Assembly (NCBI GenBank): GCA_964389925.1
Contig: CAYMGE010000002.1
Coordinates: 47,729 to 111,728, forward strand
DNA: 64,000 bases
Direction: 5' to 3'
Source: an uncultured Ardenticatenaceae bacterium
Lineage (GTDB): Bacteria > Chloroflexota > Anaerolineae > Promineifilales > Promineifilaceae
Shown here: piece after piece, positions 23,024 to 59,000 of the stretch
How positions within the stretch are numbered: the first letter of the stretch is position 1
Layout of the letters: each line of letters begins with the position of its first letter
Notes under the pieces: model-generated
What the model saw: only the letters and a program-made list of their open reading frames with translations
Told to the model about the DNA's origin: nothing
Database searches by the model: none
Made by a program: the position numbers and the translations under genes

Positions 23024-25672
23024 TCAAGATATTGATTGTAACCGATCTCTGTGGCTTTTGACGAGTGCATTCAAGCTAACCGCACACAACAGCACAGCCA
23101 TGAGTAGGATAGGATAAAGTGCGTTTTTTTCGTGTAGTACTGTGTTTTGGAGCGAGATAGCAACAGGGACTTCGGCCGACTCATACCCAAACCCCACCAT
23201 CGAATAGGGCGCAAGCACCACCGTGCTCGAGGCGTTAAGACTCAGGGGAACGGTCTCAAGTTGTACGTTTTGTGCTAGTTCGTTGTTGGATGTAATGTAC
23301 TCACCCGACAGAATTTTCATGTCTACTGTGCCGCGTGTCGTCGGCTGTGGCAGCTTCAAATCAACTGTGACTGTCTCTGTCAAGCTCAGGTTAAACAGCA
23401 TCACAGAAACATCTGAGTCATTCTTGAAAGCGAACCCCTGCACAAGTGGCAGTTCAACTGGAACCGTTAACTCATTGATTGGTGGCACGGTAATTGATGG
23501 GATATTTTCTCCCTGTACATGAATCATATCGCCAGCAATGAGTGGGTTGACAAGCTCTAAGCCTAACCACGTCGGCCGCTTGCGTCCCGTCGCCTCCAAA
23601 TCACGCAGCATTCCCCATAGGCGCACAAACTCAGTGTCAGTTTGCCTATTAGTCGATTGCAACTCATATAGTTGATCGTCGAACTGTTCGCGCTGATACC
23701 ATGGGGGGGCGGCCGAGCGGCTTACATTAAAAACAGGATACGAATACTGCAACATTGTAAACGCCGTCTGATCTCGAATCCCTAAATCACGCAAATAGGT
23801 CAACATGTGCAGCGGCAGCGCGATCCCGCCACCCAGACCTGTCACATAATCATTGCGAATATCGAGCGGAACCGTTCCGCTTGTCGTGTGAAAATTGATC
23901 TCGTAAATAGCAGGGGTTGTGCCGCGATCTGCTAGCAACTGTGTGGTGCTAAAAACATTGCGCTCCCCACCGACGGCCGATTGATAAAGCGGTTCGGCAA
24001 ATAGTGGGTAGTAGATATCGGCCGTTGTCGAGTATGTGGACAGTTTGCCAAAGTAGGGGGCAAGTGCCATGCTGTCGTGCGTCGTGCTGTTGTTTTCGAT
24101 ATGCACATTCTGTGGAAGATAGCGCGTCTGCCCACCAATAATCAGATTAAACTGCGACGCATCAAAATACTCAGAGGCGCGTATGGCTGAGAAGCGGTCG
24201 TGCGAGATTTGTCCCAGCCGCTGCCCGCCACGCACCGTTGCGCCCCAAAATGGATCACCGCCATAGCCACTGCCCCACATCTCATTGCCAAATTCGAGAT
24301 GAATTTTTGAAAAAACATCTGTCCATGGTTCAGTTTGTCCATGTTCCTGACGCAGTAGAGCATATTCATGACCGCTGCTGATAGGGGCAGCGAGATAGGC
24401 GGCGAGGTTTTCCATCTCTTCATTTAAGGTTGTCGGCGCGATCACATACCATGGCTCCGCACCGACTTCGCGGCACAGTTCCATGAATTCGCCAAGCGAA
24501 AAGTGAAAGGCGCGTGCCTTTGTTTTGCTGGGCGACCAACCGGTTGTTTTGCGTGCATATGTTGGCGCAAGCTGATTGTCGAGCGTGCTGCCCAATTGAT
24601 TGTTGCCCCAGTTGCGTAAAATACCCGGCTCTAGCTCTTTTAGATATCGGACATATTTGTCGGAAAAAACGGTCAGGTTTGTCTCATCGCTGCGAGAGAA
24701 TGAAATATCGTCCAGCCAAACGGCCTCTGCGTTGTTTGTTAAGTTCATCGTCAGTGCAAACACCGTAGAAGTTGTTGTGATTGGCTCAACAATTGTGAAT
24801 TGTCGTTCAATCAGTTGCCATTCTTGTGTTAAGGTAATCGTCTCCTGAAAGTATGGTGGAATGCCACCCTCACGTAGCACGCTTACTTCAAGCGGCTCAT
24901 TCATTTTGTGGGCTTTCACCCAAAACGAAAGTCGCCAGTTGCCATCGAAATTGACCAATCGGCCGGCACTCACATCCCCGTCACGTCCATAGCTGTCCAT
25001 GTAATAGCTGTAACTGAGCCACTTTCTGGCGGTCGAATCAGGCGCCAACATCTTGAGCGACTGCTCACCAACCGAACCCGGGCGTGTCTGACTGCGATCC
25101 GGCACTGCGTTTGCATTGCCGCAACACCCCTCCACCGTCTCAGTCATCACGCGCCGAACAACAAACACATCCCCCTCGGCCGGCTGCACATCATTTTTGT
25201 CAAAGTGAAAGGTTTGATATTGGCTTTGCTGGATCAATTGATGCGGCTCGTGTGTGAACGCTGCAACTGTGCCGCTGCGCCCTTTCGATGCCCCATAGAT
25301 AGAGTGATAGGTCGCGCCATTCCAAAAACCAACCGATTGACCATCGGTGATAACAGCCGCTTGATCCCACTGAAAGTACCAATTTTCAGCCTGTATCGTT
25401 GTCTCGGTCGCCCCATCCTCAACGATAACAATCATGCCGTATTCACCCGCTTCAAAGCCGGGGTTGAGGATGACATTTTTGAGAATTTGCGACGAGCCGA
25501 AAGGGTTGTGTGCGCCGATGTTGATGCCAAACGGCTTGACATCGGTGACGATTGCTTGCGGGTTGACGGTGAGGGTGGGTGTGGTGGTCTCGGCCGAAAC
25601 CGGCACCAGCCAAATAAGACCCCCTAATAGTAAAAATGGCAGCAATAAATAAATCAAACGATTCTCTTTCAT
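23024..25672 (-). CDS. Secreted, C-terminally anchored glycoside-hydrolase-like protein (clan GH-A / GH51-like, with CBM-like insert)
   Basis: 882 aa with signal/anchor LLLPFLLLGGLIWLV. LNPGFE start, GILRNWGNN and HLEFGNEMWG (NE acid/base-type motif), C-terminal TM helix (ILLMAVLLCAVSLNAL). Family assignment is by eye only. Confidence 0.5.
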   Translation of the reverse strand: MKENRLIYLLLPFLLLGGLIWLVPVSAETTTPTLTVNPQAIVTDVKPFGINIGAHNPFGSSQILKNVILNPGFEAGEYGMIVIVEDGATETTIQAENWYFQWDQAAVITDGQSVGFWNGATYHSIYGASKGRSGTVAAFTHEPHQLIQQSQYQTFHFDKNDVQPAEGDVFVVRRVMTETVEGCCGNANAVPDRSQTRPGSVGEQSLKMLAPDSTARKWLSYSYYMDSYGRDGDVSAGRLVNFDGNWRLSFWVKAHKMNEPLEVSVLREGGIPPYFQETITLTQEWQLIERQFTIVEPITTTSTVFALTMNLTNNAEAVWLDDISFSRSDETNLTVFSDKYVRYLKELEPGILRNWGNNQLGSTLDNQLAPTYARKTTGWSPSKTKARAFHFSLGEFMELCREVGAEPWYVIAPTTLNEEMENLAAYLAAPISSGHEYALLRQEHGQTEPWTDVFSKIHLEFGNEMWGSGYGGDPFWGATVRGGQRLGQISHDRFSAIRASEYFDASQFNLIIGGQTRYLPQNVHIENNSTTHDSMALAPYFGKLSTYSTTADIYYPLFAEPLYQSAVGGERNVFSTTQLLADRGTTPAIYEINFHTTSGTVPLDIRNDYVTGLGGGIALPLHMLTYLRDLGIRDQTAFTMLQYSYPVFNVSRSAAPPWYQREQFDDQLYELQSTNRQTDTEFVRLWGMLRDLEATGRKRPTWLGLELVNPLIAGDMIHVQGENIPSITVPPINELTVPVELPLVQGFAFKNDSDVSVMLFNLSLTETVTVDLKLPQPTTRGTVDMKILSGEYITSNNELAQNVQLETVPLSLNASSTVVLAPYSMVGFGYESAEVPVAISLQNTVLHEKNALYPILLMAVLLCAVSLNALVKSHRDRLQSIS

Positions 25673-29122: not shown

Positions 29123-31066
29123 CTACATCAAACGACCAGCCAACCCCAGCCCATACCCCGCCAGCCAAGCCGGCAGCGTGCCGCGCACGGTGCGCGTGAT
29201 GGCGCGTTCGGGATGACGGTAGGCACTCAACGCCATCACATTTGCCATTGTACCCGTCAAGCCCATCACCTGCGCCGGTGTAAACTCGCCATCGGCAAAC
29301 GACAACGCTAGCGGCCCCAACCATGCCCATTTGCGTGCAGGCTTCAGCCCTAATTTCATCGACAAATCTCCCACAATCCGGTTGGCGACTGAAACGTGAT
29401 GCGTATGCCCTTCGGCATGTGGTGCATCAATTTTGTCCAGCAGGTCGCCATTGCGCTGCGCGGCAAGCCACGCGCCTGTCAATGCCGCAATCATGATCGC
29501 TTTTGTCTTTGCGTTTTCAAATTGCAGAGCCGCGACAGTGAGCGGCACAAACCAATCTAAATTCCAACCGCGAAATTCTTCGACACGCTGACGATAGGCT
29601 GCTTCAGACGTAGCGGCCGCCAACGTGATAGCTCCCGCCTCCATATAGGCTTGGCCGATCAACCAATCCAACCAGCCAGTTCTCTGTGCGCTTGTGAGCG
29701 TCGCGGCGGGGGCAAGCGTAGAGGTAGCGAGGGCGATTAGCTTGGGCGAAAATGAGGTCTGCATGGGGGAAACATCCCCGCTGTCATGATGGTGATGCCC
29801 ACCGCCACCGTGCGCATGAATTGTGCTGACACCGTTCAGCGAATGTGTGTGTGACTGTTCATGCTCGCTATCGTCGCCGTGTGAATGTGGGGCAGGGGTG
29901 AGCATTCCCTTCTGCTCGACAAAAGGCAATGCGGCCGCACCAAGCGCAGCAAGTCCGACGCAGGGAACAGCCAACGACTCAGGCATATCGAGCATGTCAT
30001 TGATGGCGGCCGCACCAATCCCTGCTGCCGCAAGCCCCACAAGCGCAAGTTCTTGCGGTTCAACCTCGCTCCGCTTCACTGCTGCCTCATCGACTGACAA
30101 CTCTTGGCTCAATTGGTAGCCAGCATCTTCGAGCGCGTGCTTGAGATAGTGAACGTAGTCAAGCCCTTCAAGTGGCTCTGTTGCGTGCAGGACGCGGAAA
30201 AAGTTGAGGTAGCAGAGCCGTACCCCGCGTTCGTTGGCGAGATGTACCCACGTGTGGGCGGCCGAATGGTAGTCCATCTCCATCATTTCAGCTTGGGTAA
30301 AACGATGGGCGAGAACAACATGTGGCAAACGCCCTTTGGCGATGAACCAGTCGCCGCGCTGATGGCGTGACTCGGCAAAATAGGCCATCGTGAGGCCATA
30401 GCTGTTCATTGCCTTGAGCGTGTCGTTGATCTGCATCTCGTGACCGAGAACCCAATCCCCCTCAAACGCGACCAGCTTGCCGACGTGGCCGGCCGAGTGC
30501 AGCCCGTGGTCTATCAACTCAGGATCAGGCCAATCGTAGCTGGCAGGGCGCGGCACGACAGCGAGGCCAAGCGACTGTAAGTGTTTGCCGAACGCCTCAT
30601 CAAAGCCGAGTCCAAGATCACCATGTGCGAGCAAGCTGCCAGCAAAGACGAGTGTGTTGTCGTCGAGCTGCTGCCCTTTGAGCTGGGGCAGTCGCCAGTT
30701 GAGCGCACTTTCGATGATCGGGATAAATTGGGCTGTTCCGTGCAGATAGATCCATTGCCCCAGTGGAGGGGCTTCTGCAAGCCTATCGGCCGGCACCATC
30801 GGCCGCAACACCCCACGCTGAATCAACCCATTAAGTGTCATTTCAGGCAGTGAAATGTGCGTTGCGCCTTTAGCGACAAGCTGTTTAGCGAGATCGTCAA
30901 ACGTGATGCCAGCCCGCAGCGCGGCGACGGTCACATCGTCAAAATCGACACAAATGCCAACTTTTTTGTTGCGCTTTTCTTGCGCGTGACGTTTTTGCAA
31001 CACTTTTGTGCTGGCGACTGTGCCAACAGTGGTTGCAGCGAGGGAAAGAATACGGGAAAGCTTCAA
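29123..31066 (-). CDS. Large polytopic membrane protein with N-terminal soluble domain and His-rich loop (function unknown)
   Basis: 647 aa. N-terminal anchor, soluble domain of about 330 aa, then about 8 or more hydrophobic helices. Loop HSHGDDSEHEQSHTHSLNGVSTIHAHGGGGHHHHDSGD. From memory it resembles DUF5693-type proteins; unverified. Confidence 0.65.
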   Translation of the reverse strand: MKLSRILSLAATTVGTVASTKVLQKRHAQEKRNKKVGICVDFDDVTVAALRAGITFDDLAKQLVAKGATHISLPEMTLNGLIQRGVLRPMVPADRLAEAPPLGQWIYLHGTAQFIPIIESALNWRLPQLKGQQLDDNTLVFAGSLLAHGDLGLGFDEAFGKHLQSLGLAVVPRPASYDWPDPELIDHGLHSAGHVGKLVAFEGDWVLGHEMQINDTLKAMNSYGLTMAYFAESRHQRGDWFIAKGRLPHVVLAHRFTQAEMMEMDYHSAAHTWVHLANERGVRLCYLNFFRVLHATEPLEGLDYVHYLKHALEDAGYQLSQELSVDEAAVKRSEVEPQELALVGLAAAGIGAAAINDMLDMPESLAVPCVGLAALGAAALPFVEQKGMLTPAPHSHGDDSEHEQSHTHSLNGVSTIHAHGGGGHHHHDSGDVSPMQTSFSPKLIALATSTLAPAATLTSAQRTGWLDWLIGQAYMEAGAITLAAATSEAAYRQRVEEFRGWNLDWFVPLTVAALQFENAKTKAIMIAALTGAWLAAQRNGDLLDKIDAPHAEGHTHHVSVANRIVGDLSMKLGLKPARKWAWLGPLALSFADGEFTPAQVMGLTGTMANVMALSAYRHPERAITRTVRGTLPAWLAGYGLGLAGRLM

Positions 31067-31119
31067 CGAAAACTCCGAAATTCAGCGAGCAGTAAGCCGA
31101 GAAAGCTGCTGTTCACTGT

Positions 31120-32319
31120 TTATTGTTTGCTGTCTATTGCGGTCTTTAACTGCTTGCCAAGCAACATTCGCCCTGTATCGGTTTTGAATACGTCGATGAG
31201 GGTGCGCCAGACGGCGAGCTTGCTGCGGAAATCGGCCGACCATTGAGCCGTTGCCGCACGATCTTCAACACCGCGCTTGATGCGGTCGGTTAATGTTTGG
31301 ACAGGTTTTTGCTGGCTGCGTTTGAGGATGTCAGAAAGACCGAGTGTGGCGATATGGTCACGCAGTTTCGCGGGTGTTGCACCTGCCAAACGCTGCATGA
31401 CATCGGCGGGGACAGGCGCACTCAATAGCTTTTGTGCAAGCGCCAGACCCGCAAGGGCATAGGGCGCAGCGCGGCGGTCGATAGCGCGTTGTGTGAACGT
31501 TTGCCAGTCGATATTACCGGCATGACTGACGCGCATGATGTCGGTGAACTGAACGAGAGACGGTGCGCCTTCGATCAGATGAAAGCAAAAGTGAACGCAG
31601 ACATGCAGAAGCAAATCTTCGCGGCTCAGAACACGGCAAGTGTGGTCGCCAAATTGAGCAATTTCAGCACGTTCACGGATGCCGGGTGTGATGTTGACTT
31701 TAAGACCATACCACGACTCTTCAATCGAGCTATGCGGTTCGATCATTCGGTCATTCTTGGCGGAAAGATAGGGGTTTGGGGTGTTATCAGCCGCCCCCTC
31801 GCGCTTAAATGTCGAAGTATGCTTTGTCACGCCTGCACCTGACTCGGCCGATTTATGCTTCCCGCCATAGCCTATCTCGCTCAACATCTGTTCTGCTTGC
31901 GCCAACTGCGCTGGCTCAAATAGCAGGTCAATGTCGTTCATCGGGCGCAGGGCGGGTTCAGGGTAAACGTGCGCGGCGAGGTGTGCGCCTTTGAGGGCAA
32001 TCGGCCGAATGCCTCGCACTTCGCACGCCGCCAACACGTCGTCTAGCTGCGTGTAAATGGCTGTCGCCCGTTTAGCTTGCGCGGCGTGTGTCACCTTGAG
32101 TTTGGCAAATGCACGTATTGGCAGGTCGAGTTGCCACTCGCTGACGCGATGGTAAAGCTGGGGAGCCAGCCCTAACACAATTGCACGAATAGCGACATCG
32201 TCCCACACGCTATCCTCTGCGAGTCGATCACCCCACTTGGTTTGCCATTGCTCGGCCGACCAATCGGGGCGTAATGCGTCTAAGATAAATTCAGTTGCTT
32301 GTAATGGGGATTTTTTCAT
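31120..32319 (-). CDS. Nucleotidyltransferase, NTP_transf_5 (PF14907-like) family
   Basis: The ORF-track start at 32328 is TTG; ATG at 32319 (MKKSPLQ) has GAGG upstream. Signature IALKGAHLAAHVYPEPALRPMNDIDLLFEP (G...DxD of the pol-beta NTase fold). Confidence 0.75.
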   Translation of the reverse strand: MKKSPLQATEFILDALRPDWSAEQWQTKWGDRLAEDSVWDDVAIRAIVLGLAPQLYHRVSEWQLDLPIRAFAKLKVTHAAQAKRATAIYTQLDDVLAACEVRGIRPIALKGAHLAAHVYPEPALRPMNDIDLLFEPAQLAQAEQMLSEIGYGGKHKSAESGAGVTKHTSTFKREGAADNTPNPYLSAKNDRMIEPHSSIEESWYGLKVNITPGIRERAEIAQFGDHTCRVLSREDLLLHVCVHFCFHLIEGAPSLVQFTDIMRVSHAGNIDWQTFTQRAIDRRAAPYALAGLALAQKLLSAPVPADVMQRLAGATPAKLRDHIATLGLSDILKRSQQKPVQTLTDRIKRGVEDRAATAQWSADFRSKLAVWRTLIDVFKTDTGRMLLGKQLKTAIDSKQ

Positions 32320-32323
32320 TTGC

Positions 32324-32342
32324 CTCAATTGCCAAAGAGAGA
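32324..32342. repeat. Left arm of a perfect 19-bp inverted repeat flanking the twin peptide genes
   Basis: CTCAATTGCCAAAGAGAGA is the exact reverse complement of 32718-32736. It overlaps the SD region of the nucleotidyltransferase gene. Confidence 0.9.
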
Positions 32343-32421
32343 CGCGCTACCAAACGAGTTGATGTTCAGTCTGTGCGGCAACGTTTGTTACCGGATGGCT
32401 TACGCCATCAATAAAATCGGT

Positions 32422-32487
32422 TTAGTGAGAGCTAAAGGTAACTTGAGAAAGTTCTTCGTGCTTTTGGATTTCTGGCTTTACGTACAT
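32422..32487 (-). CDS. Small peptide gene, copy 1 (21 aa: MYVKPEIQKHEELSQVTFSSH)
   Basis: ATG with AGGAG 7 nt upstream, TAA stop. The peptide is identical to copy 2, and all differences between the copies are synonymous. Confidence 0.7.
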   Translation of the reverse strand: MYVKPEIQKHEELSQVTFSSH

Positions 32488-32616
32488 GGGAATGCTCCTA
32501 TGATTAAAGTTGTGATTGTGTTTGATACGTTTGTATCGGGTTGTGGATACTGTTGTATCCATGGTCACGTGTGTGACCGTGCGCTTATGCGCTGAATTAG
32601 AGACGCGATCTTCGGC

Positions 32617-32682
32617 TTAGTGAGAGCTGAAGGTAACTTGAGACAATTCTTCGTGCTTTTGAATTTCTGGTTTTACGTACAT
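32617..32682 (-). CDS. Small peptide gene, copy 2 (21 aa: MYVKPEIQKHEELSQVTFSSH)
   Basis: ATG with AGGAGA 6 nt upstream, TAA stop. Differs from copy 1 at AAA/AAG, ATT/ATC, TTG/CTT, TTC/TTT only. Confidence 0.7.
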   Translation of the reverse strand: MYVKPEIQKHEELSQVTFSSH

Positions 32683-32717
32683 AAGGTTCTCCTAAAAGGA
32701 TAATGTCTGTTAGCGAA

Positions 32718-32736
32718 TCTCTCTTTGGCAATTGAG
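32718..32736. repeat. Right arm of the perfect 19-bp inverted repeat
   Basis: TCTCTCTTTGGCAATTGAG. Lies 36-54 nt upstream of peptide copy 2 and just downstream of the predicted promoter. Confidence 0.9.
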
Positions 32737-32749
32737 CATCGTAACAGGG

Positions 32750-32778
32750 TGTATAACGCAGTTTTTCAGATTTGTCCA
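32750..32778 (-). promoter_or_regulatory. Sigma-70-like promoter candidate for the peptide operon
   Basis: On the minus strand, TGGACA-17 nt-TATACA. This would place the 5' end of the transcript a few nt before the right IR arm. Prediction by eye only. Confidence 0.35.
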
Positions 32779-32818
32779 GCAAATGGCTCGTTTTGGGGGG
32801 GTAGAACGGGGTTGGATG

Positions 32819-32840
32819 ATTGATTTCGGCCGAAATCAAT
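32819..32840. repeat. Perfect 22-bp palindrome ATTGATTTCGGCCGAAATCAAT (extended TCGGCCGA site)
   Basis: Self-complementary over 22 bp. Lies between the rimM stop (32907) and the predicted peptide-operon promoter. No U-run follows on either strand. Confidence 0.8.
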
Positions 32841-32906
32841 GCAATTTACGCCATTCAGCGTATAACTACCTCTCATCACTTCGAGCTGCACCAATGGACA
32901 AACGGC

Positions 32907-33464
32907 TCAAAGCAACCCGTCTGGCAAATGCACAAGCAGTTGCCCATTGGCAATGTCAACCTCTAGTATCACCCCTTCAATATCGGGAATCAAAATCTCG
33001 CCTTGCTCACCCTGCACAATGAAGACATCATTTGCACCCGTTTCGAGGATTTGGCTGACTGTGCCAAGCTGTTCTCCCGTATCGGTCAGCACGTTGATGC
33101 CAATGGCTTGAAATGCGTAGAATTCATCTTCTGCGAGCGGTAGCGCATCCTCTAGCGTGACAAAAAGCCAGTGTTGACGTAGTGTCCCAGCCTCTTCGCG
33201 CCCGTTGATTTCGGCAAATTTGACGAGGGCTTCTTCTTTGTTGAAGCGCACGTTTTCAACGGTCAGGGGGCGTGGGTTAGCGTCATTCGGCCGACGCGAC
33301 ACATATACGCGCTCTAAATCAAAGAAACGCGCAGGTTCATCGCTTTCAACGGAAACCTTTAGTTCCCCCATCACGCCGTGCGGCTTACGAATAAACCCTA
33401 TAATCAAAAAACGAGGTTCCGCAGAACCTCGCTCCCTTTCTCTTGGTGAAAGATTGTTTGTCAT
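32907..33464 (-). CDS. rimM: 16S rRNA processing protein RimM
   Basis: 185 aa. IGFIRKPHGVMGELKV N-terminal barrel block plus a PRC-barrel C-terminus. Conserved position after rpsP and the KH gene. Confidence 0.9.
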   Translation of the reverse strand: MTNNLSPRERERGSAEPRFLIIGFIRKPHGVMGELKVSVESDEPARFFDLERVYVSRRPNDANPRPLTVENVRFNKEEALVKFAEINGREEAGTLRQHWLFVTLEDALPLAEDEFYAFQAIGINVLTDTGEQLGTVSQILETGANDVFIVQGEQGEILIPDIEGVILEVDIANGQLLVHLPDGLL

Positions 33465-33691
33465 AATACTTCGAGCGTGACCCGTTTGCCCTCTTTTGCG
33501 CCAAGCGACTGAACAATCGTGCGGAGGGCATTGATGACACGTCCTTTGCGGCCGATGACGCGCCCTGTATCCTCATCTGCAACACGCACCTCAACGATGA
33601 TAGATGACTCACCTGCCATCTCTGTCACTTCGACCATATCTGGTTCATCAACCAGCGATTTCACCATATATTCGACTAAATCTTTAAACAT
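33461..33691 (-). CDS. KH-domain RNA-binding protein (UPF0109 / YlqC-like)
   Basis: Start set at the ATG at 33691 (MFKDLVEYMV) with GAGGGA upstream. GXXG motif in VIGRKGRVINALRTIV. Overlaps the rimM start by 4 nt. Confidence 0.85.
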   Translation of the reverse strand: MFKDLVEYMVKSLVDEPDMVEVTEMAGESSIIVEVRVADEDTGRVIGRKGRVINALRTIVQSLGAKEGKRVTLEVL

Positions 33692-33843
33692 AATTCCCTC
33701 AAGGTGTTTACCCAAAATAGTTGTACGTTATTCTCATCTTCACAGTGCTTATGATTGTATGCCCTAATGAAGAAATCGCAACGCGCAGACTGCCAAAATG
33801 GCTATTTATATCTCAAAACAGCCATTTTGATAACTATTTGAAA

Positions 33844-34356
33844 CTATGCTTCGCTCGTTTCGTCGGTCTCATCGTTTCCAGTAACAGCGTCAACAAGATT
33901 GCTGACCACGTTAGAAACCACCTCAACTGCGTCTGACGCAGCTTCGCTAACAGCTTCACTCACGGCCGCGGCCGCATCACTCACAGTCTCTTGCACAGAC
34001 TCAATGACGCTGCTTGCAGTCTCCTCAGCCTCTTCAACGATGGGCGGCCATGGCGTGCCTTCAAACTCAGCGACCAACTTGCCCATTTCTTCACCGGCAC
34101 GGAAGCGTGCAAGGCGATCTAGTGTGCCTTGTTTTTCCAAGAGACGACGAACCGCATCTGATGGCTGTGCGCCAACGCTCAACCAGTGCAAGGCACGTCC
34201 TTCTTCAACTTTATAAACAATGGGATCAACCATTGGATTATAATAGCCAATCTGCTCAACAAAACGACCATCGCGCTTAGAGCTACTTTCTGCTACCACA
34301 ACGCGATAACTTGGTTGCCGTTTCTTCCCACGGCGTGCTAAACGAATACGTAACAT
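33844..34356 (-). CDS. rpsP: 30S ribosomal protein S16 with a C-terminal extension of about 85 aa
   Basis: Start set at the ATG at 34356 (MLRIRLARRGKKRQPSYRVVVAES) with GGAGAA upstream. The core S16 is followed by an Ala/Val/Ser/Glu-rich tail. Confidence 0.9.
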   Translation of the reverse strand: MLRIRLARRGKKRQPSYRVVVAESSSKRDGRFVEQIGYYNPMVDPIVYKVEEGRALHWLSVGAQPSDAVRRLLEKQGTLDRLARFRAGEEMGKLVAEFEGTPWPPIVEEAEETASSVIESVQETVSDAAAAVSEAVSEAASDAVEVVSNVVSNLVDAVTGNDETDETSEA

Positions 34357-36267: not shown

Positions 36268-38316
36268 TCAATCCTCCATTAGTGCGTCCCATTCGGCCGA
36301 TAGCTCCCCAACCTCTTGCTCGACCCGCGCCAACGCTTGCTCTAAGTCGCTCACTAGCTCGTCTATACCCAGCAGTTTCGCGTCTGCAAGCTGCATCTGC
36401 AACGTCTCTAGGCGTGCTTCGGCCGCGTCAAGCAGCGGCTCCAGTTCACCGAGCCGCTTGCGCCACTGTTTAGACGATAGTTCCTCGTCAAAATCATGCT
36501 GAAAGGTAAGGATGCTATCGATTGATTTTTCGAGTGCCTCATCGGTCTTTTGCGGTTCCTTCCCCTTTTCTATTTCCTGTTCAAGCTCGCGTTTCTCAAG
36601 ATAAGTCGCATAACCATCTTCATAGACATATAGTTTGCCATCACGAATTGACCATATTTGCGTCGCTAATTTGCTGACGAGATAGCGATCATGACTAACA
36701 AAGATCAGCGTGCCGTCGTACTGTTCCAACACAGATTGCAGCACTTCTTGTGAGGGAATATCGAGATGGTTGGTCGGCTCATCAAGCAGCAAGAAATTTG
36801 CGCCCTGTGTCGCCAGAATTGCCAATGCCAATCGGCCGCGCTCGCCTCCGCTCAAGTCACGAACCTTTTTGAAAACGGTGTGACCACGAAACAGATAGCT
36901 TGCCAAGATATTGCGTGCCTGCTGCGTGCCAATTGGGGCAGCGTTGATGAGTTCGTCGATCACGCGATTGGCAGGATTCAGTTGGTCATGTGCTTGGGCA
37001 AAATAACCAAGCGCCAAGTTTTCGCCAACTTTTACGTCCCCTAACGTCCAAAGCTGTCCGCTATCAGCAAAGCGTTGTTGGCAGCTTTTCAAAATCGCTT
37101 TGATGAACGTCGATTTTCCGCTGCCGTTTTCGCCCAGAATGGCAATGCGGTCGCCGCGCTCAATGCGGAGCCGCTCGGAGGTGACAAGCGGTTTATCCTC
37201 GTAGCCAGCTCGTAGGTTTTTTGATTGGAGGACGAGTTTATCGCTTGTTTCGGCCGATTCCAGCCGAACTTTCATCACGGGTGGCTTGCTACTCACCATC
37301 CGCAATCCACGCAGCCGCCTTCGCGCTTCATTGGTCGAAAATGTGCGCGTGCGCCCTCCAACCTCAATCCAGCTTTTCCCCTCCAATTCGGTCGGGGGGA
37401 AGTTTTCCAACAGGACGATTTCCCGCGTCAGCCGCTTGAGCTTCCCCTTCGCCTGATCGCTCTGTCCATCGGCAATGTGCTGGCGAATAAAGTCAAACTC
37501 TTTTTCGAGCCTTCCCTTTTTGGCCTTGAATAAGGACGCTTCGCGCTCCCAATCTTGCATTCGACGTGCCACATAGTTGGTGTAGTCGCCCTGATATGTT
37601 TTTAGTGCAGAGGGGGTGAGTTCCCAAATAGCCGTCGCAATTTTGTTCAAGAAGTAACGATCATGGCTGACGATGAGTAGTGTGCCAGCCCATTTTCGCA
37701 GCGTATTTTCGAGCCATTCAACGGCCGACCAGTCAAGATGGTTGGTTGGTTCATCCAAAATCAACAGATCGGGTTTTTCCAGCAACAGACGAGCCAACAA
37801 GACGCGCGTTTTTTGTCCGCCACTCAAGTGAGAGAGAGGGGTTTGCCATGTCGCTTCGGGGAAGCCAAGACCGATGAGCGTTAGCTTGATTTCGGCCGAA
37901 AAATCCCAACCACCGCCCATCTCAAACGCATTTTGCACCCTTCCATATCTTTCAAGTAGCTCCTCTGAAAAATCGCCTGCTTCCATGCACGTTTCCATCT
38001 GGCGCATCTGTTCTTGTAATGCAGTCAAATCCCCAAACACGGTCAACATTTCTTCGTAAATCGTGTTTTCCTGACCCCGAAACGCCAAGACTGCTTCCTG
38101 TTGCAATACCCCTAACGACAGCTCGCGCTGCGTCACAACCTCGCCCGTGCGCGGTTCCTGCAATCCCGCCAAAATATGTAGCAGCGTTGTTTTGCCACAC
38201 CCATTTGCACCCACCAACCCAACGCGCTCCTTCACGTTGAGCCGCACGTCAATTTCGCTAAATAAATCTTCAGCCCCAAACGACTGCGCTAAATTTCTGG
38301 CACTTAATATCGTCAT
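36268..38316 (-). CDS. ABC-F family ATPase (two NBDs, no TMD, C-terminal coiled coil)
   Basis: 682 aa. Walker A GANGCGKTTLL and GENGSGKSTFI, signatures LSGGQKTRVLLA and LSGGERGRLALA, charged linker between the NBDs. Confidence 0.9.
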   Translation of the reverse strand: MTILSARNLAQSFGAEDLFSEIDVRLNVKERVGLVGANGCGKTTLLHILAGLQEPRTGEVVTQRELSLGVLQQEAVLAFRGQENTIYEEMLTVFGDLTALQEQMRQMETCMEAGDFSEELLERYGRVQNAFEMGGGWDFSAEIKLTLIGLGFPEATWQTPLSHLSGGQKTRVLLARLLLEKPDLLILDEPTNHLDWSAVEWLENTLRKWAGTLLIVSHDRYFLNKIATAIWELTPSALKTYQGDYTNYVARRMQDWEREASLFKAKKGRLEKEFDFIRQHIADGQSDQAKGKLKRLTREIVLLENFPPTELEGKSWIEVGGRTRTFSTNEARRRLRGLRMVSSKPPVMKVRLESAETSDKLVLQSKNLRAGYEDKPLVTSERLRIERGDRIAILGENGSGKSTFIKAILKSCQQRFADSGQLWTLGDVKVGENLALGYFAQAHDQLNPANRVIDELINAAPIGTQQARNILASYLFRGHTVFKKVRDLSGGERGRLALAILATQGANFLLLDEPTNHLDIPSQEVLQSVLEQYDGTLIFVSHDRYLVSKLATQIWSIRDGKLYVYEDGYATYLEKRELEQEIEKGKEPQKTDEALEKSIDSILTFQHDFDEELSSKQWRKRLGELEPLLDAAEARLETLQMQLADAKLLGIDELVSDLEQALARVEQEVGELSAEWDALMED

Positions 38317-56000: not shown

Positions 56001-59000
56001 ATGCAAAACGAACCTATCGCTATCATCGGCATGGCAGGGCTATTTCCAAATGCCCCCGATGTCCATACTTATTGGCACAACATTTTGAACAACGTGCCGG
56101 GCATTAGTGATCCCGCCAATGCCAATTGGGATACAAACATTCGCGGTGGCTATTTGGGCGATCTGGCACGCTTTAATCCAAAAAAGTTTGGCATAAAAGC
56201 ACGCGCCCTTGACGGCACAGAACCGGCTCAATGGCTAGCCCTCTCCATGGCAAAAGCGGCTCTCGATGATGCTGATTTTGACAGCTTCAAAACAGAGGCC
56301 ATTCGCGCCCGAACTGCCGTCATTTTGGGCAATGGTGCGTACATCAATCGCGGCAACACAACCCATTATCAAGCGGGAACCCTTGTGGATGAGACGGTTG
56401 AATTGATCGGCCGACTCAATCTAGGGCTAGAAGCCGAACAACTCAACGGCCTGCGTGATGAATTACAGAGCCATTTACCACCGCTCAACGCCCGTGTGGC
56501 ACGAGGATTGATCCCAAACATCATTGCGGGGCGTGTCGCCAATCGGCTCGACTTGATGGGCGGTGCGTACACTGTTGATGCGGCATGTGCATCGGCAATT
56601 TTCGCAATTGAGCAAGCGGTACGTGGCTTGCAGCGGGGGGAAATTGACTGCGCTATCGTCGGCGGTGCATATATCGCCAGCCCAAGCCCCATGACGAAAC
56701 TATTTGGGAAGCTGGGCATTGTCTCAGCAAATGGTCAAATTGAGCCATTTGGGGCGGGTGAAGGTGGCACGCTGCTTGGTGAAGGGATTGCGATGCTGGT
56801 GTTGCGTCGCCTCTCTGATACAGCCCCAAAGTCAGTTTATGCCGTGATTCGTGGGATTGGCACAGGTAGCGACGGTGGAGACATCAACGTACTTGCCCCT
56901 AAATTTCAGGGTGCAGTGCGGGTCATGCAAAAGGCTCTCGCTGATGCGGAGGTCGAAAAAGCGTCCATCGACCTGATTGAGTCACATGGGCTTGGCACAA
57001 AAGTGGGCGACCATACCGAATTTGCGGCGTTGGCAACCGTCTATGGTGGCAAAAAGTCGCGCATCATTGGGACAGTCAAGCCGATGACAGGACACACGAT
57101 GCCAGCGTCGGGGGCAAACGCGATTATCAAAGCAGCGTTGGCGATTCAAACGGGAACGTTGCCACCGACGATCAACGCGAGCAATCCCGATCCTAAGCTG
57201 GACTGGGAGAAGGCAAATATGCGTTTTTTGCAGAAATCGGCCGAATGGTCATCCCAAACACGTCGCGCCGCTGTCAACTCTTATGGCTTTGGCGGTGTGG
57301 CTGCACACGTCATTCTCGAAAACGCGCCGGCCGAAAAACAGCGCGAGACGTTGCCACAACCCATTCCACTCGACGAAAACGCGATTGTGTTGGAGACAAA
57401 TCGGCGCACGTTAGTTGTGTCAGATGAGTTCGTAGAGAAGTTGCAAGCGGCAAGTGAGTTCGTGGGTAGCGATGATGGGGGCAAAGTGGAAAGTGTCAGA
57501 ACGAATAAGAATAAAGAATCTAGGGAGGACAAGGTTGCAAGTTACAACTTGCAACTTGCAACTTCTCCAAAAGAGGGTGATATGAATTCTGTAATGAGTG
57601 ATTACTTTAATTTGATGGAGACATTTTTGCATGTGCAGCGCGACGTGATGCTGGCGGCGATGGGTGGGGAGATGCCCCCAATGATGGCACAACCACAACA
57701 GACTGTCTACGAGATACCACAGCAGCCAGCCCAACCACCTGCCCCACAACCTATTTATGAGCCATACACACCTCCGACCACTAATACAAATGGGCAGACA
57801 GCCGTCAAAGAGACCGTTGTGGAGGTTGCACCAACGGTGACATCACAATCGTCGGATAGTGGCGCGGATGCGATGCGTGACGCGCTGGTTGAGATTGTGG
57901 CGGTGCAGACGGGGTATCCGGCCGACATGATTGGGACTGATTTGGATTTAGAGGCAGAGTTGGGGATCGATTCGATTAAGCGGGTCGAGATTTTGACAGC
58001 GTTTCAGGAGCAGTTTGGGGATGCGGTACGCTCCGACCAGATGGATGATTTGTCAGAGTTGAAGACATTGGATGAGATTGTGGGGTTTGTCGGGGGGGAT
58101 AGCGCAAATTTTAAGCGAGGGGGAGCGGATGCCCCCGTCCTTGACTTTCCGTACATCCGCAACGTCGTGGCTCGTTCAGCAAATCACCTTGAAGTGACCA
58201 ATGTGACCGACGTACAGACTGAGATTTTGCTGCGAGACCACGCTTTTGGGCGGGGAGTATCGGCCGATCCAACAATAGTCGGCCTCCCCGTCCTTCCTAT
58301 GACTGGTGCCATCGAGATGATGGCTGAGGCAGCGCAACTGCTAGAGCCATCGCGTCAGTTGGTGGGCTTACGCGATGTGCGCTCGTTGCGCTGGATAACG
58401 GCTCCGAGCGGCGTTTTGCAAACGCGCACGGTTGCCGAGCGAACGGAGGAAGGGGTGAAAGTTCGCCTGTTTGTGGTGGGAGATCGGTTGCACGCGGCGG
58501 AGATGACTGTGCTTTTTGCGGCCGACTATCCGCTTCTCACATCTCAATCGACGGTTTGTGAGCAGACTGAAATCCGCTCCATCTGGGAGAACATTTATGC
58601 AGAGAGTGGGCTATTTCACGGGGAGGGGTTACAGAACATTCAGGAGATTAGTACCTATTCAGACGAGCATATTTGCGCCACCTTGCAAGTGAAGCCAAAC
58701 GAATGCTGGCTGCTTGACCCAATTTTGTTGGATGGGTTGGCACAACTATCGGGGTGTTGGGGGACGTTAACACAAGATGCGTTGGTGCTGCCCATGGCGA
58801 TTGAGGCGGTTGATTTTGCCGCTCCACTCAATTTGAGCGCAGGCAGCATCGTGCGCTGTGAGTCGCAGATGTCGATGGAAGATGGGCTTGCGGTCACAAA
58901 TTTACACCTATTCACTGGTGACAGGTTGCTGCTCACCACCACAGCGTGGCGCGGACAACTATTCGCACTACCGCAGCAGCTCACAGACTTTCTCCTCAAG

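Follow-up and report, generated by a model that had tools for sequence, protein, structure and literature searches.

A covarying inverted repeat, very probably a long-range RNA helix, brackets a small-peptide cassette beside a nucleotidyltransferase gene in Chloroflexota

The window analyzed here, a 64,000-nt stretch of contig CAYMGE010000002.1 from an uncultured Ardenticatenaceae bacterium (assembly GCA_964389925.1, positions 47,729 to 111,728 of the forward strand), contains a perfect 19-bp inverted repeat, CTCAATTGCCAAAGAGAGA at 32324-32342 on the plus strand and its exact reverse complement at 32718-32736, whose arms enclose two tiny peptide genes immediately upstream of a nucleotidyltransferase (NTase) gene. 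Comparison with orthologous loci from other Chloroflexota indicates that the two arms very probably form an RNA helix under selection, which would tie the 5′ leader of one small mRNA to its 3′ trailer. The original prediction, made from this DNA alone, had offered three readings of the repeat: a long-range RNA stem serving as an RNase III site or translational lock, an invertible DNA segment, or the termini of a small mobile cassette.

The repeat ranks first among the inverted repeats of the window in a window-wide scan for arms at most 1 kb apart, and no further match to CTCAATTGCCAAAGAGAGA is found in the 64 kb with up to 3 mismatches allowed (0.02 expected). Complementarity continues inward to 32 nt at 88% (Table 1), so that the perfect cores are 375 bp apart and the extended arms 349 bp. 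The genes around the cassette are all on the minus strand and, read along that sense strand, the order is putative promoter, 5′ arm, first open reading frame (ORF) with its Shine-Dalgarno (SD) sequence, four hairpins, second SD-ORF, two hairpins, 3′ arm, and NTase start codon. The contents of the 375-bp segment are as originally described, namely two identical 21-codon minus-strand ORFs, each with an AGGAG SD, and six or seven short tetraloop hairpins; the overlap of one arm with the NTase SD is likewise confirmed, the 3′ arm covering the GAG of GAGG and ending 4 nt before the ATG. When the 461-nt stretch is folded as RNA, the arms pair with each other (z = -9.0 relative to shuffled sequences). 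The promoter that had been placed just before the 5′ arm is plausible: both hexamer blocks are kept in the closest relative (L001) while the spacer varies, our consensus scan missed the window promoter because its -10 hexamer lacks the terminal T, and transcription from it would plausibly start 4-9 nt before the 5′ arm.

The evidence for the helix comes from a set of 68 orthologous loci (designated by L numbers) found by a profile search of one genome per species, at 41-87% protein identity. A peptide gene, in one or two copies, lies next to the PF14907 gene in 64 of these, and the remaining four have no upstream sequence. For each locus, the 160 nt upstream of the first peptide gene were compared with the 400 nt downstream of the last, and the best ungapped complementary pair was taken (match +1, mismatch -1.5). 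Scores of 11.5-29 were obtained for 59 of 62 loci, against shuffle maxima of 7-14; two more loci, whose peptides are variants, have helices that pair perfectly over 19 and 22 bp. The cassette is therefore bracketed by a helix, 14-36 bp long, in 61 of the 64 peptide-bearing loci. The three failures are two loci with only 52 and 95 nt of upstream sequence, and L002, which has a degenerate 5′ arm. Conservation and complementarity of the arms at orthologous loci, whose absence the original prediction had listed among the refuting outcomes, hold in 61 of 64 cases.

The arms differ in sequence from clade to clade yet remain complementary within each locus, as in the pairs CCTTGGGGAGGTGTATTGTCA/TGACAATACACCTCCCCAAGG, GCTAAAAAAAGGCGCGCTA/TAGCGCGCCTTTTTTTAGC, and GTCCTGCCGCGGAGAGGCGCGCTAGAGG/CCTCTGGCGCGCCTCTCCGCCGCAGGAC. 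RNAalifold applied to a MAFFT alignment of 42 distinct arm pairs yields one helix of 26 pairs, with double compensatory changes at 24 of the 26; the covariation score of 0.564 compares with 0.236 in shuffles and was reached by none of 500, and standard pairs occupy 90.8% of cells (a percentage inflated by the choice of arms for complementarity before alignment) a share that drops to 38.6-50.6% if the 3′ partners are shifted by 1-3 columns. Because the arms had been chosen in this way, we added two controls that the pre-selection does not affect: i) cognate arm pairs have a mean score of 19.5, compared with 9.6 for non-cognate pairs drawn from different clades; and ii) in a full-length MAFFT alignment of 13 single-copy cassettes, made blind to pairing, the long-range helix is the sole structure that RNAalifold predicts (15 pairs, 10 with compensatory change), no other conserved interior structure being found on that alignment. 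The helix is also present in the minimum-free-energy fold of 58 of 59 cassettes. A scan of positions 31000-34000 with the Rfam 15 covariance models at E <= 1 gave no match, apart from a chance group I intron elsewhere.

The departures from Watson-Crick pairing point to RNA rather than DNA as the object of selection. Among non-Watson-Crick cells of the helix, read on the sense strand, G·U outnumbers A·C by 61 to 20 (an A·C on this strand being a G·U on the antisense strand), although these counts are phylogenetically non-independent; the sense strand folds more stably than the antisense strand by a mean of 2.5 kcal/mol; and two particular G·U pairs, whose G is always that of the 5′ arm, recur across a dozen Leptofilum-type species. 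The sense-strand bias therefore argues for selection on the sense-strand RNA, and not for repeats homogenized by recombination.

The helix travels with the peptide gene rather than with the NTase start site. It brackets a single peptide gene in some lineages and a pair in others, so the peptide gene was duplicated within the bracket. In L017 (5211-5502) and L028 (2763-3036) the cassette is found not upstream of the NTase gene but between it and the DUF5693 gene, and retains its own promoter-like -10 box, 5′ arm, SD-ORF, and 3′ arm; the helix thus belongs to the peptide transcription unit. More generally, about half of the loci have a -10 box (5 or more of 6 positions matching) 12-64 nt before the 5′ arm, and in 7 loci a GC-rich hairpin and T run, resembling a terminator, follows the 3′ arm within 16 nt, which implies a self-contained small mRNA with both ends paired. 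The interior hairpins are lineage-specific: L001 and L071 have different ones, mostly GNRA-capped. Such arrays of 5-7-bp stems with tetraloops fill the non-coding interior of the window cassette and are also seen at L001:3645-3960 and L071:1-300, where the loops are mostly GNRA (GCAA, GAAA, GUAA), and their number and sequence vary among relatives at 87-89% NTase identity. Hairpin arrays that change fast between the window, L001, and L071 while keeping their tetraloops fit an mRNA selected for stability.

We propose, with a probability of about 0.55, that the helix is a 5′-3′ RNA clamp, and probably an RNase III site, through which the peptide mRNA is stabilized and made independent of the enzyme gene; RNase III action is suggested by helix length together with what is established about bacterial RNA decay. 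The arms would be the 5′ leader and 3′ trailer of a single small minus-strand mRNA holding the peptide gene or genes, and their pairing over about 20-32 bp would turn the entire cassette into a closed loop. Near-perfect duplexes of at least two helical turns are natural substrates of RNase III. Cleavage within the stem would separate the peptide mRNA from the NTase message downstream of it; the released mRNA would retain base-paired, exonuclease-resistant ends, with the interior tetraloop hairpins adding protection; and in any uncut read-through transcript the 3′ arm would mask the ribosome-binding region of the next gene. The net outcome would be much peptide, the presumed substrate, and little enzyme. 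In keeping with an RNase III helix, the duplex spans about two turns or more, is formed by sequences on either side of a unit, and shows compensatory change. A literature search for RNase III processing of precursor mRNAs of RiPPs (peptides made by the ribosome and modified after translation) found nothing relevant.

Several observations weigh against this proposal. Apart from the non-independence of the G·U counts and the selection of arms by complementarity mentioned above, they concern translation and sequence. In about 31 loci, the window among them, the ATG of the next gene is inside the 3′ arm or at most 21 nt from it, mostly with no recognizable SD, but occlusion of the ribosome-binding site is not universal, since the next start is 30-130 nt away in about 20 loci; and in a thermodynamic model of the window the NTase SD is paired in the full transcript but not clearly freed by removal of the 5′ arm. 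Of the original RNA reading, the long-range stem is strongly supported as a structure (61 of 64 cassettes, covariation, G·U bias, association with the peptide gene); the consequences proposed for it (RNase III cleavage, a translational lock, uncoupled stoichiometry) are reasonable candidates, and masking of the ribosome-binding site applies to only about half of the loci. In addition, the helix core is conserved in sequence (consensus RGAGGCGCGCUAC / GUAGCGCGCCUCY), with pair G29-C85 invariant and A28-U86 found in 41 of 42 distinct sequences; a helix that serves RNase III or stability in a generic way could do without such a core, so a sequence-specific partner may be involved. As separate observations, SD-less NTase starts near or inside the 3′ arm are seen for example in L013, L016, L022, and L048, and the 3′ arm bears an anti-SD-like CCUCC where the 5′ arm bears GGAGG.

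The first alternative is that the helix is never cut, but acts as a clamp or lock that protects the mRNA ends and represses the next gene until it is opened, with RNase III uninvolved. This draws on the same structural evidence as cleavage; the 7 self-contained promoter-helix-terminator units need no separation from a downstream cistron, and SD-less starts are found inside or beside the 3′ arm in about 31 loci. RNase III, however, normally cuts uninterrupted duplexes of at least 20 bp in bacterial mRNAs, no means of opening the helix is apparent, and the accessibility model does not clearly free the SD when the 5′ arm is absent. We consider a purely protective and repressive helix possible, but distinctly less likely than one that is cleaved.

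Two related alternatives take the conserved core as their starting point. The helix could be more than a generic processing stem: a double-stranded RNA element with a dedicated role and sequence specificity, recognized by the ribosome itself or by part of the peptide-NTase-DUF5693 system, that couples peptide synthesis to synthesis of the enzyme acting on the peptide; this idea, which we consider improbable, draws on the invariant AG/CU step, the GGCGCGCUAC core, and the pairing of an SD-like purine strand with an anti-SD-like strand, and if true it would define a new class of cis-regulatory RNA specific to an as yet undescribed peptide-modification pathway widespread in Chloroflexota. Or the helix could be the recognition site of one particular RNA-binding protein, perhaps encoded in the cluster, that exerts feedback on peptide or enzyme synthesis. 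Preservation of the core in sequence, including the invariant G29-C85 and nearly invariant A28-U86 pairs, and of the GGCGCGCUAC block across classes would suit such a protein, as would the composition of the 5′ arm, since of 52 distinct arms 49 are rich in purines and 37 include GGAG or GAGG; but Pfam finds no RNA-binding domain in the NTase or the DUF5693 protein, and the window core itself departs from consensus (GAUUCGCUAAC). A protein-binding site is also compatible with RNase III cleavage, not exclusive of it, and as a separate explanation we rate it as quite improbable.

Readings of the repeat as a DNA element fare worse. A pair of operators, around which a transcription factor would loop the DNA, could account for the conserved GCGCGC-containing core in both arms, but not for outer two thirds that vary freely while staying mutually complementary, nor for the sense-strand G·U bias, and both arms lie in transcribed sequence; we think it very unlikely. 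An inverton, in which a recombinase flips the 375-bp segment so that peptide expression varies by phase, would naturally have near-perfect inverted repeats on either side of a short segment, and was one of the readings first offered. Yet all 82 strict-pattern peptide ORFs and the two variants (L005, L065) lie on the NTase strand, with none inverted; an independent Logan assembly, built from another sequencing run, matches the window exactly over 700 nt, orientation included; no recombinase or transposase is found among the Pfam-scanned genes from about 17.9 to 44 kb (within about 14 kb of the cassette), a scan that left aside the KH, rpsP, and ffh genes and a 682-aa ORF at 36268-38316, and in which an 882-aa ORF had no hit; the segment consists of complete SD-ORF units with no promoter inside it, the putative promoter lying outside; and arm-specific G·U mismatches are kept across species, where recombination within the arms would scramble them. 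The single orientation, the lack of a nearby recombinase, and the external promoter led us to reject the inverton, which we regard as extremely unlikely. Least likely of all is a small non-autonomous element resembling a miniature inverted-repeat transposable element: in its favor are the inverted termini and the shifted place of the cassette with respect to the NTase gene in L017 and L028, but the 19-mer is single-copy in the window, the search for other copies in the metagenome contigs returned only two unrelated, single-arm chance matches, the flanks (...TACGATG before one arm, GCAAATG... after the other) contain no direct repeat and hence no target-site duplication, synteny with the NTase gene extends over more than 60 very divergent genomes at 41-87% protein identity, and the arms covary clade by clade. 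Thus, as far as assemblies allow, orientation, recombinase, copy-number, and duplication evidence dispose of both the invertible and the mobile segment.

The bracketed peptides form an unannotated, deeply conserved family with the pattern M(K)Y.KP...KH..L.Q(V/I)TFSSH-stop, 21-23 residues long, charged and hydrophilic (MYVKPEIQKHEELSQVTFSSH in the window), in which Y2, K4, P5, K9, H10, L13, Q15, T17, and F18-H21 are invariant. The 82 strict-pattern ORFs comprise 80 in 59 genome loci and the two in the window; L005 and L065 carry variant peptides. An SD precedes 80 of the 82, nucleotide entropy by codon position is 8.0/4.1/18.8, and every nucleotide difference within the ORFs of window peptide genes 1 and 2 is synonymous; judged by its sequence, then, the peptide ORF is translated. 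Six peptide variants had no exact match in a collection of 15 billion proteins, the peptide matched no Pfam or NCBIfam model, and a literature search on the C-terminal motif gave irrelevant matches only. The TFSSH C-terminus and the spacing of Y2, P5, I/L7, and T17 recall lasso-peptide leaders, a lead and nothing firmer, and the peptide may be likened to a lasso-type leader with almost no core. Close homologs of the NTase number in the hundreds, all in Chloroflexota metagenome-assembled genomes (Anaerolineae, Ardenticatenaceae, Promineifilaceae, Caldilineaceae). Two loci labeled Vicinamibacterales (Acidobacteriota), L048 (OZ252293.1) and L065 (CBDAOD010000002.1, with a variant peptide ending ...QIAFSSH), carry the same peptide-helix-NTase-DUF5693 cassette, reflecting either horizontal transfer or a mislabeled genome.

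The structure of the NTase is modeled with confidence (mean predicted local distance difference test score, pLDDT, of 86), and in the model its catalytic domain resembles the aminoglycoside nucleotidyltransferase ANT(2″)-Ia; Pfam detects NTP_transf_5 only, and no solved structures related by sequence were found. PsmN, which is required for attachment of a hexose to the C-terminal Ser, in phosphorylated form, of pseudomycoidin, a lasso peptide, was described by its authors as a member of an uncharacterized nucleotidyltransferase family and was modeled on the same ANT(2″) structures (PMC6993621); its likeness to our NTase lies in this family description and in the ANT(2″) modeling. In Ardenticatenales/Promineifilaceae-type loci, a DUF5693 gene is the third conserved member of the cluster. 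The DUF5693 protein has a His-rich stretch (HAHGGGGHHHHDSGD, with other HxH motifs) between its Pfam-matched N-terminal half and a membrane-like C-terminal half. A short conserved ORF beside an enzyme gene, the context typical of RiPPs, is found in 64 loci, and the peptide-NTase pair, joined by DUF5693 in one large clade, looks like an undescribed peptide-modification system.

Known systems resemble the cassette in part. Long-range helices that bracket a whole unit are textbook for rRNA, but rare and poorly documented for bacterial mRNAs. In the RNase III processing stems of 16S and 23S rRNA, as here, flanks pair across hundreds of nucleotides in a covarying duplex of at least 20 bp, but the present helix encloses a small mRNA for one or two copies of a 21-23-residue peptide, its core is conserved in sequence, and cleavage is only inferred. 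The mRNAs of hok-type type I toxins likewise pair the 5′ end of a small-peptide message with its 3′ end to give a closed, stable molecule; our peptide, however, is hydrophilic and not toxin-like, is encoded beside an enzyme gene, and does not have its own SD as the sequestered element, and no antisense RNA is evident (2 antisense promoter-like sites against 1.1 expected). RiPP operons usually solve the problem of substrate:enzyme stoichiometry with a simple hairpin after the precursor gene. The intercistronic hairpins of mccA-mccB, pqqA-pqqB, and lantibiotic structural genes are RNA structures between a tiny precursor gene and an enzyme gene, believed to keep the precursor:enzyme ratio high; but they are local hairpins or terminators, whereas the cassette helix is long-range, uses the 5′ leader, and encloses the entire precursor cassette. 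Invertons such as fimS and hin share a short segment between inverted repeats, but the cassette has no recombinase, second orientation, or internal promoter, and its mismatches are of the RNA type. Finally, the a1/a2 repeats of retron msr-msd bracket a structured transcript directly upstream of a gene for a polymerase-fold enzyme, a topological analogy only; we dropped it because the gene here encodes a PF14907 nucleotidyltransferase instead of a reverse transcriptase and because the bracketed sequence is clearly coding. None of the rRNA stems, the hok fold-back, or the RiPP hairpins combines a long-range 5′-3′ helix with a precursor-like peptide cassette, and we place the element, which comes with a new peptide system, among the long-range helices that serve mRNA processing or stability.

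The features of the locus are collected in Table 1. Upstream of the cassette lie rimM (confirmed by Pfam) and genes for a KH protein, rpsP, and ffh, the latter three named by translation and order. Between the rimM stop codon and the cassette promoter, a 22-nt perfect palindrome, ATTGATTTCGGCCGAAATCAAT (32819-32840), is centered on one copy of the palindromic octamer TCGGCCGA; it may mark the end of the ffh-rpsP-KH-rimM transcript, and no T run follows it. The octamer itself, a highly iterated palindrome of the HIP1 type, occurs in coding and non-coding DNA in 78 copies per 64 kb against 1.5 expected (for example at 31844, 32001, 32252, 32826, and 33287). The runner-up among compact inverted repeats of the window is at 57435-57455 / 57547-57567 (21 nt, 90% complementary, 91 nt apart). 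The 882-aa ORF mentioned above, at 23024-25672 on the minus strand, has no Pfam match at E <= 1e-5.

Table 1. Coordinates, in the numbering of the window, of the peptide cassette and adjoining features
Feature	Position	Strand	Remarks
Sigma-70-type promoter, putative	32750..32778	-	-35 TGGACA 32778-32773; 17-nt spacer; -10 TATACA 32755-32750
5′ arm	32705..32736 (sense reads 32736->32705)	-	Core 32718-32736 perfect; purine-rich; covarying in orthologs
Peptide gene 1	32617..32682	-	MYVKPEIQKHEELSQVTFSSH and stop; SD AGGAGA 32693-32688
Four tetraloop hairpins between peptide genes	32524..32592	-	32592-32581, 32578-32563, 32560-32545, 32537-32524
Peptide gene 2	32422..32487	-	Identical peptide MYVKPEIQKHEELSQVTFSSH; SD AGGAG 32499-32495
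Two tetraloop hairpins, peptide gene 2 to 3′ arm	32377..32409	-	32409-32394 (GUAA loop), 32392-32377
3′ arm	32324..32355 (sense reads 32355->32324)	-	Core 32324-32342 perfect; ends 4 nt before NTase ATG (32319-32317); covers GAG of GAGG SD
Nucleotidyltransferase, 399 aa	31120..32319	-	Pfam PF14907 NTP_transf_5; ANT(2″)-Ia-like fold predicted
DUF5693 membrane protein, 647 aa	29123..31066	-	Downstream of NTase gene

The helix, conserved with abundant covariation across several orders of Chloroflexota, is an RNA motif new to Rfam and a candidate for addition to it, and can serve as a marker for hidden peptide genes that gene callers and databases omit. It also draws attention to an NTase family with almost no known functions, and offers a testable model of how the ratio of substrate to enzyme may be set in ribosomal peptide pathways. 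Together, helix and cassette point to an undescribed system of peptide, NTase, and DUF5693 protein in Chloroflexota, a phylum that abounds in wastewater and sediments.

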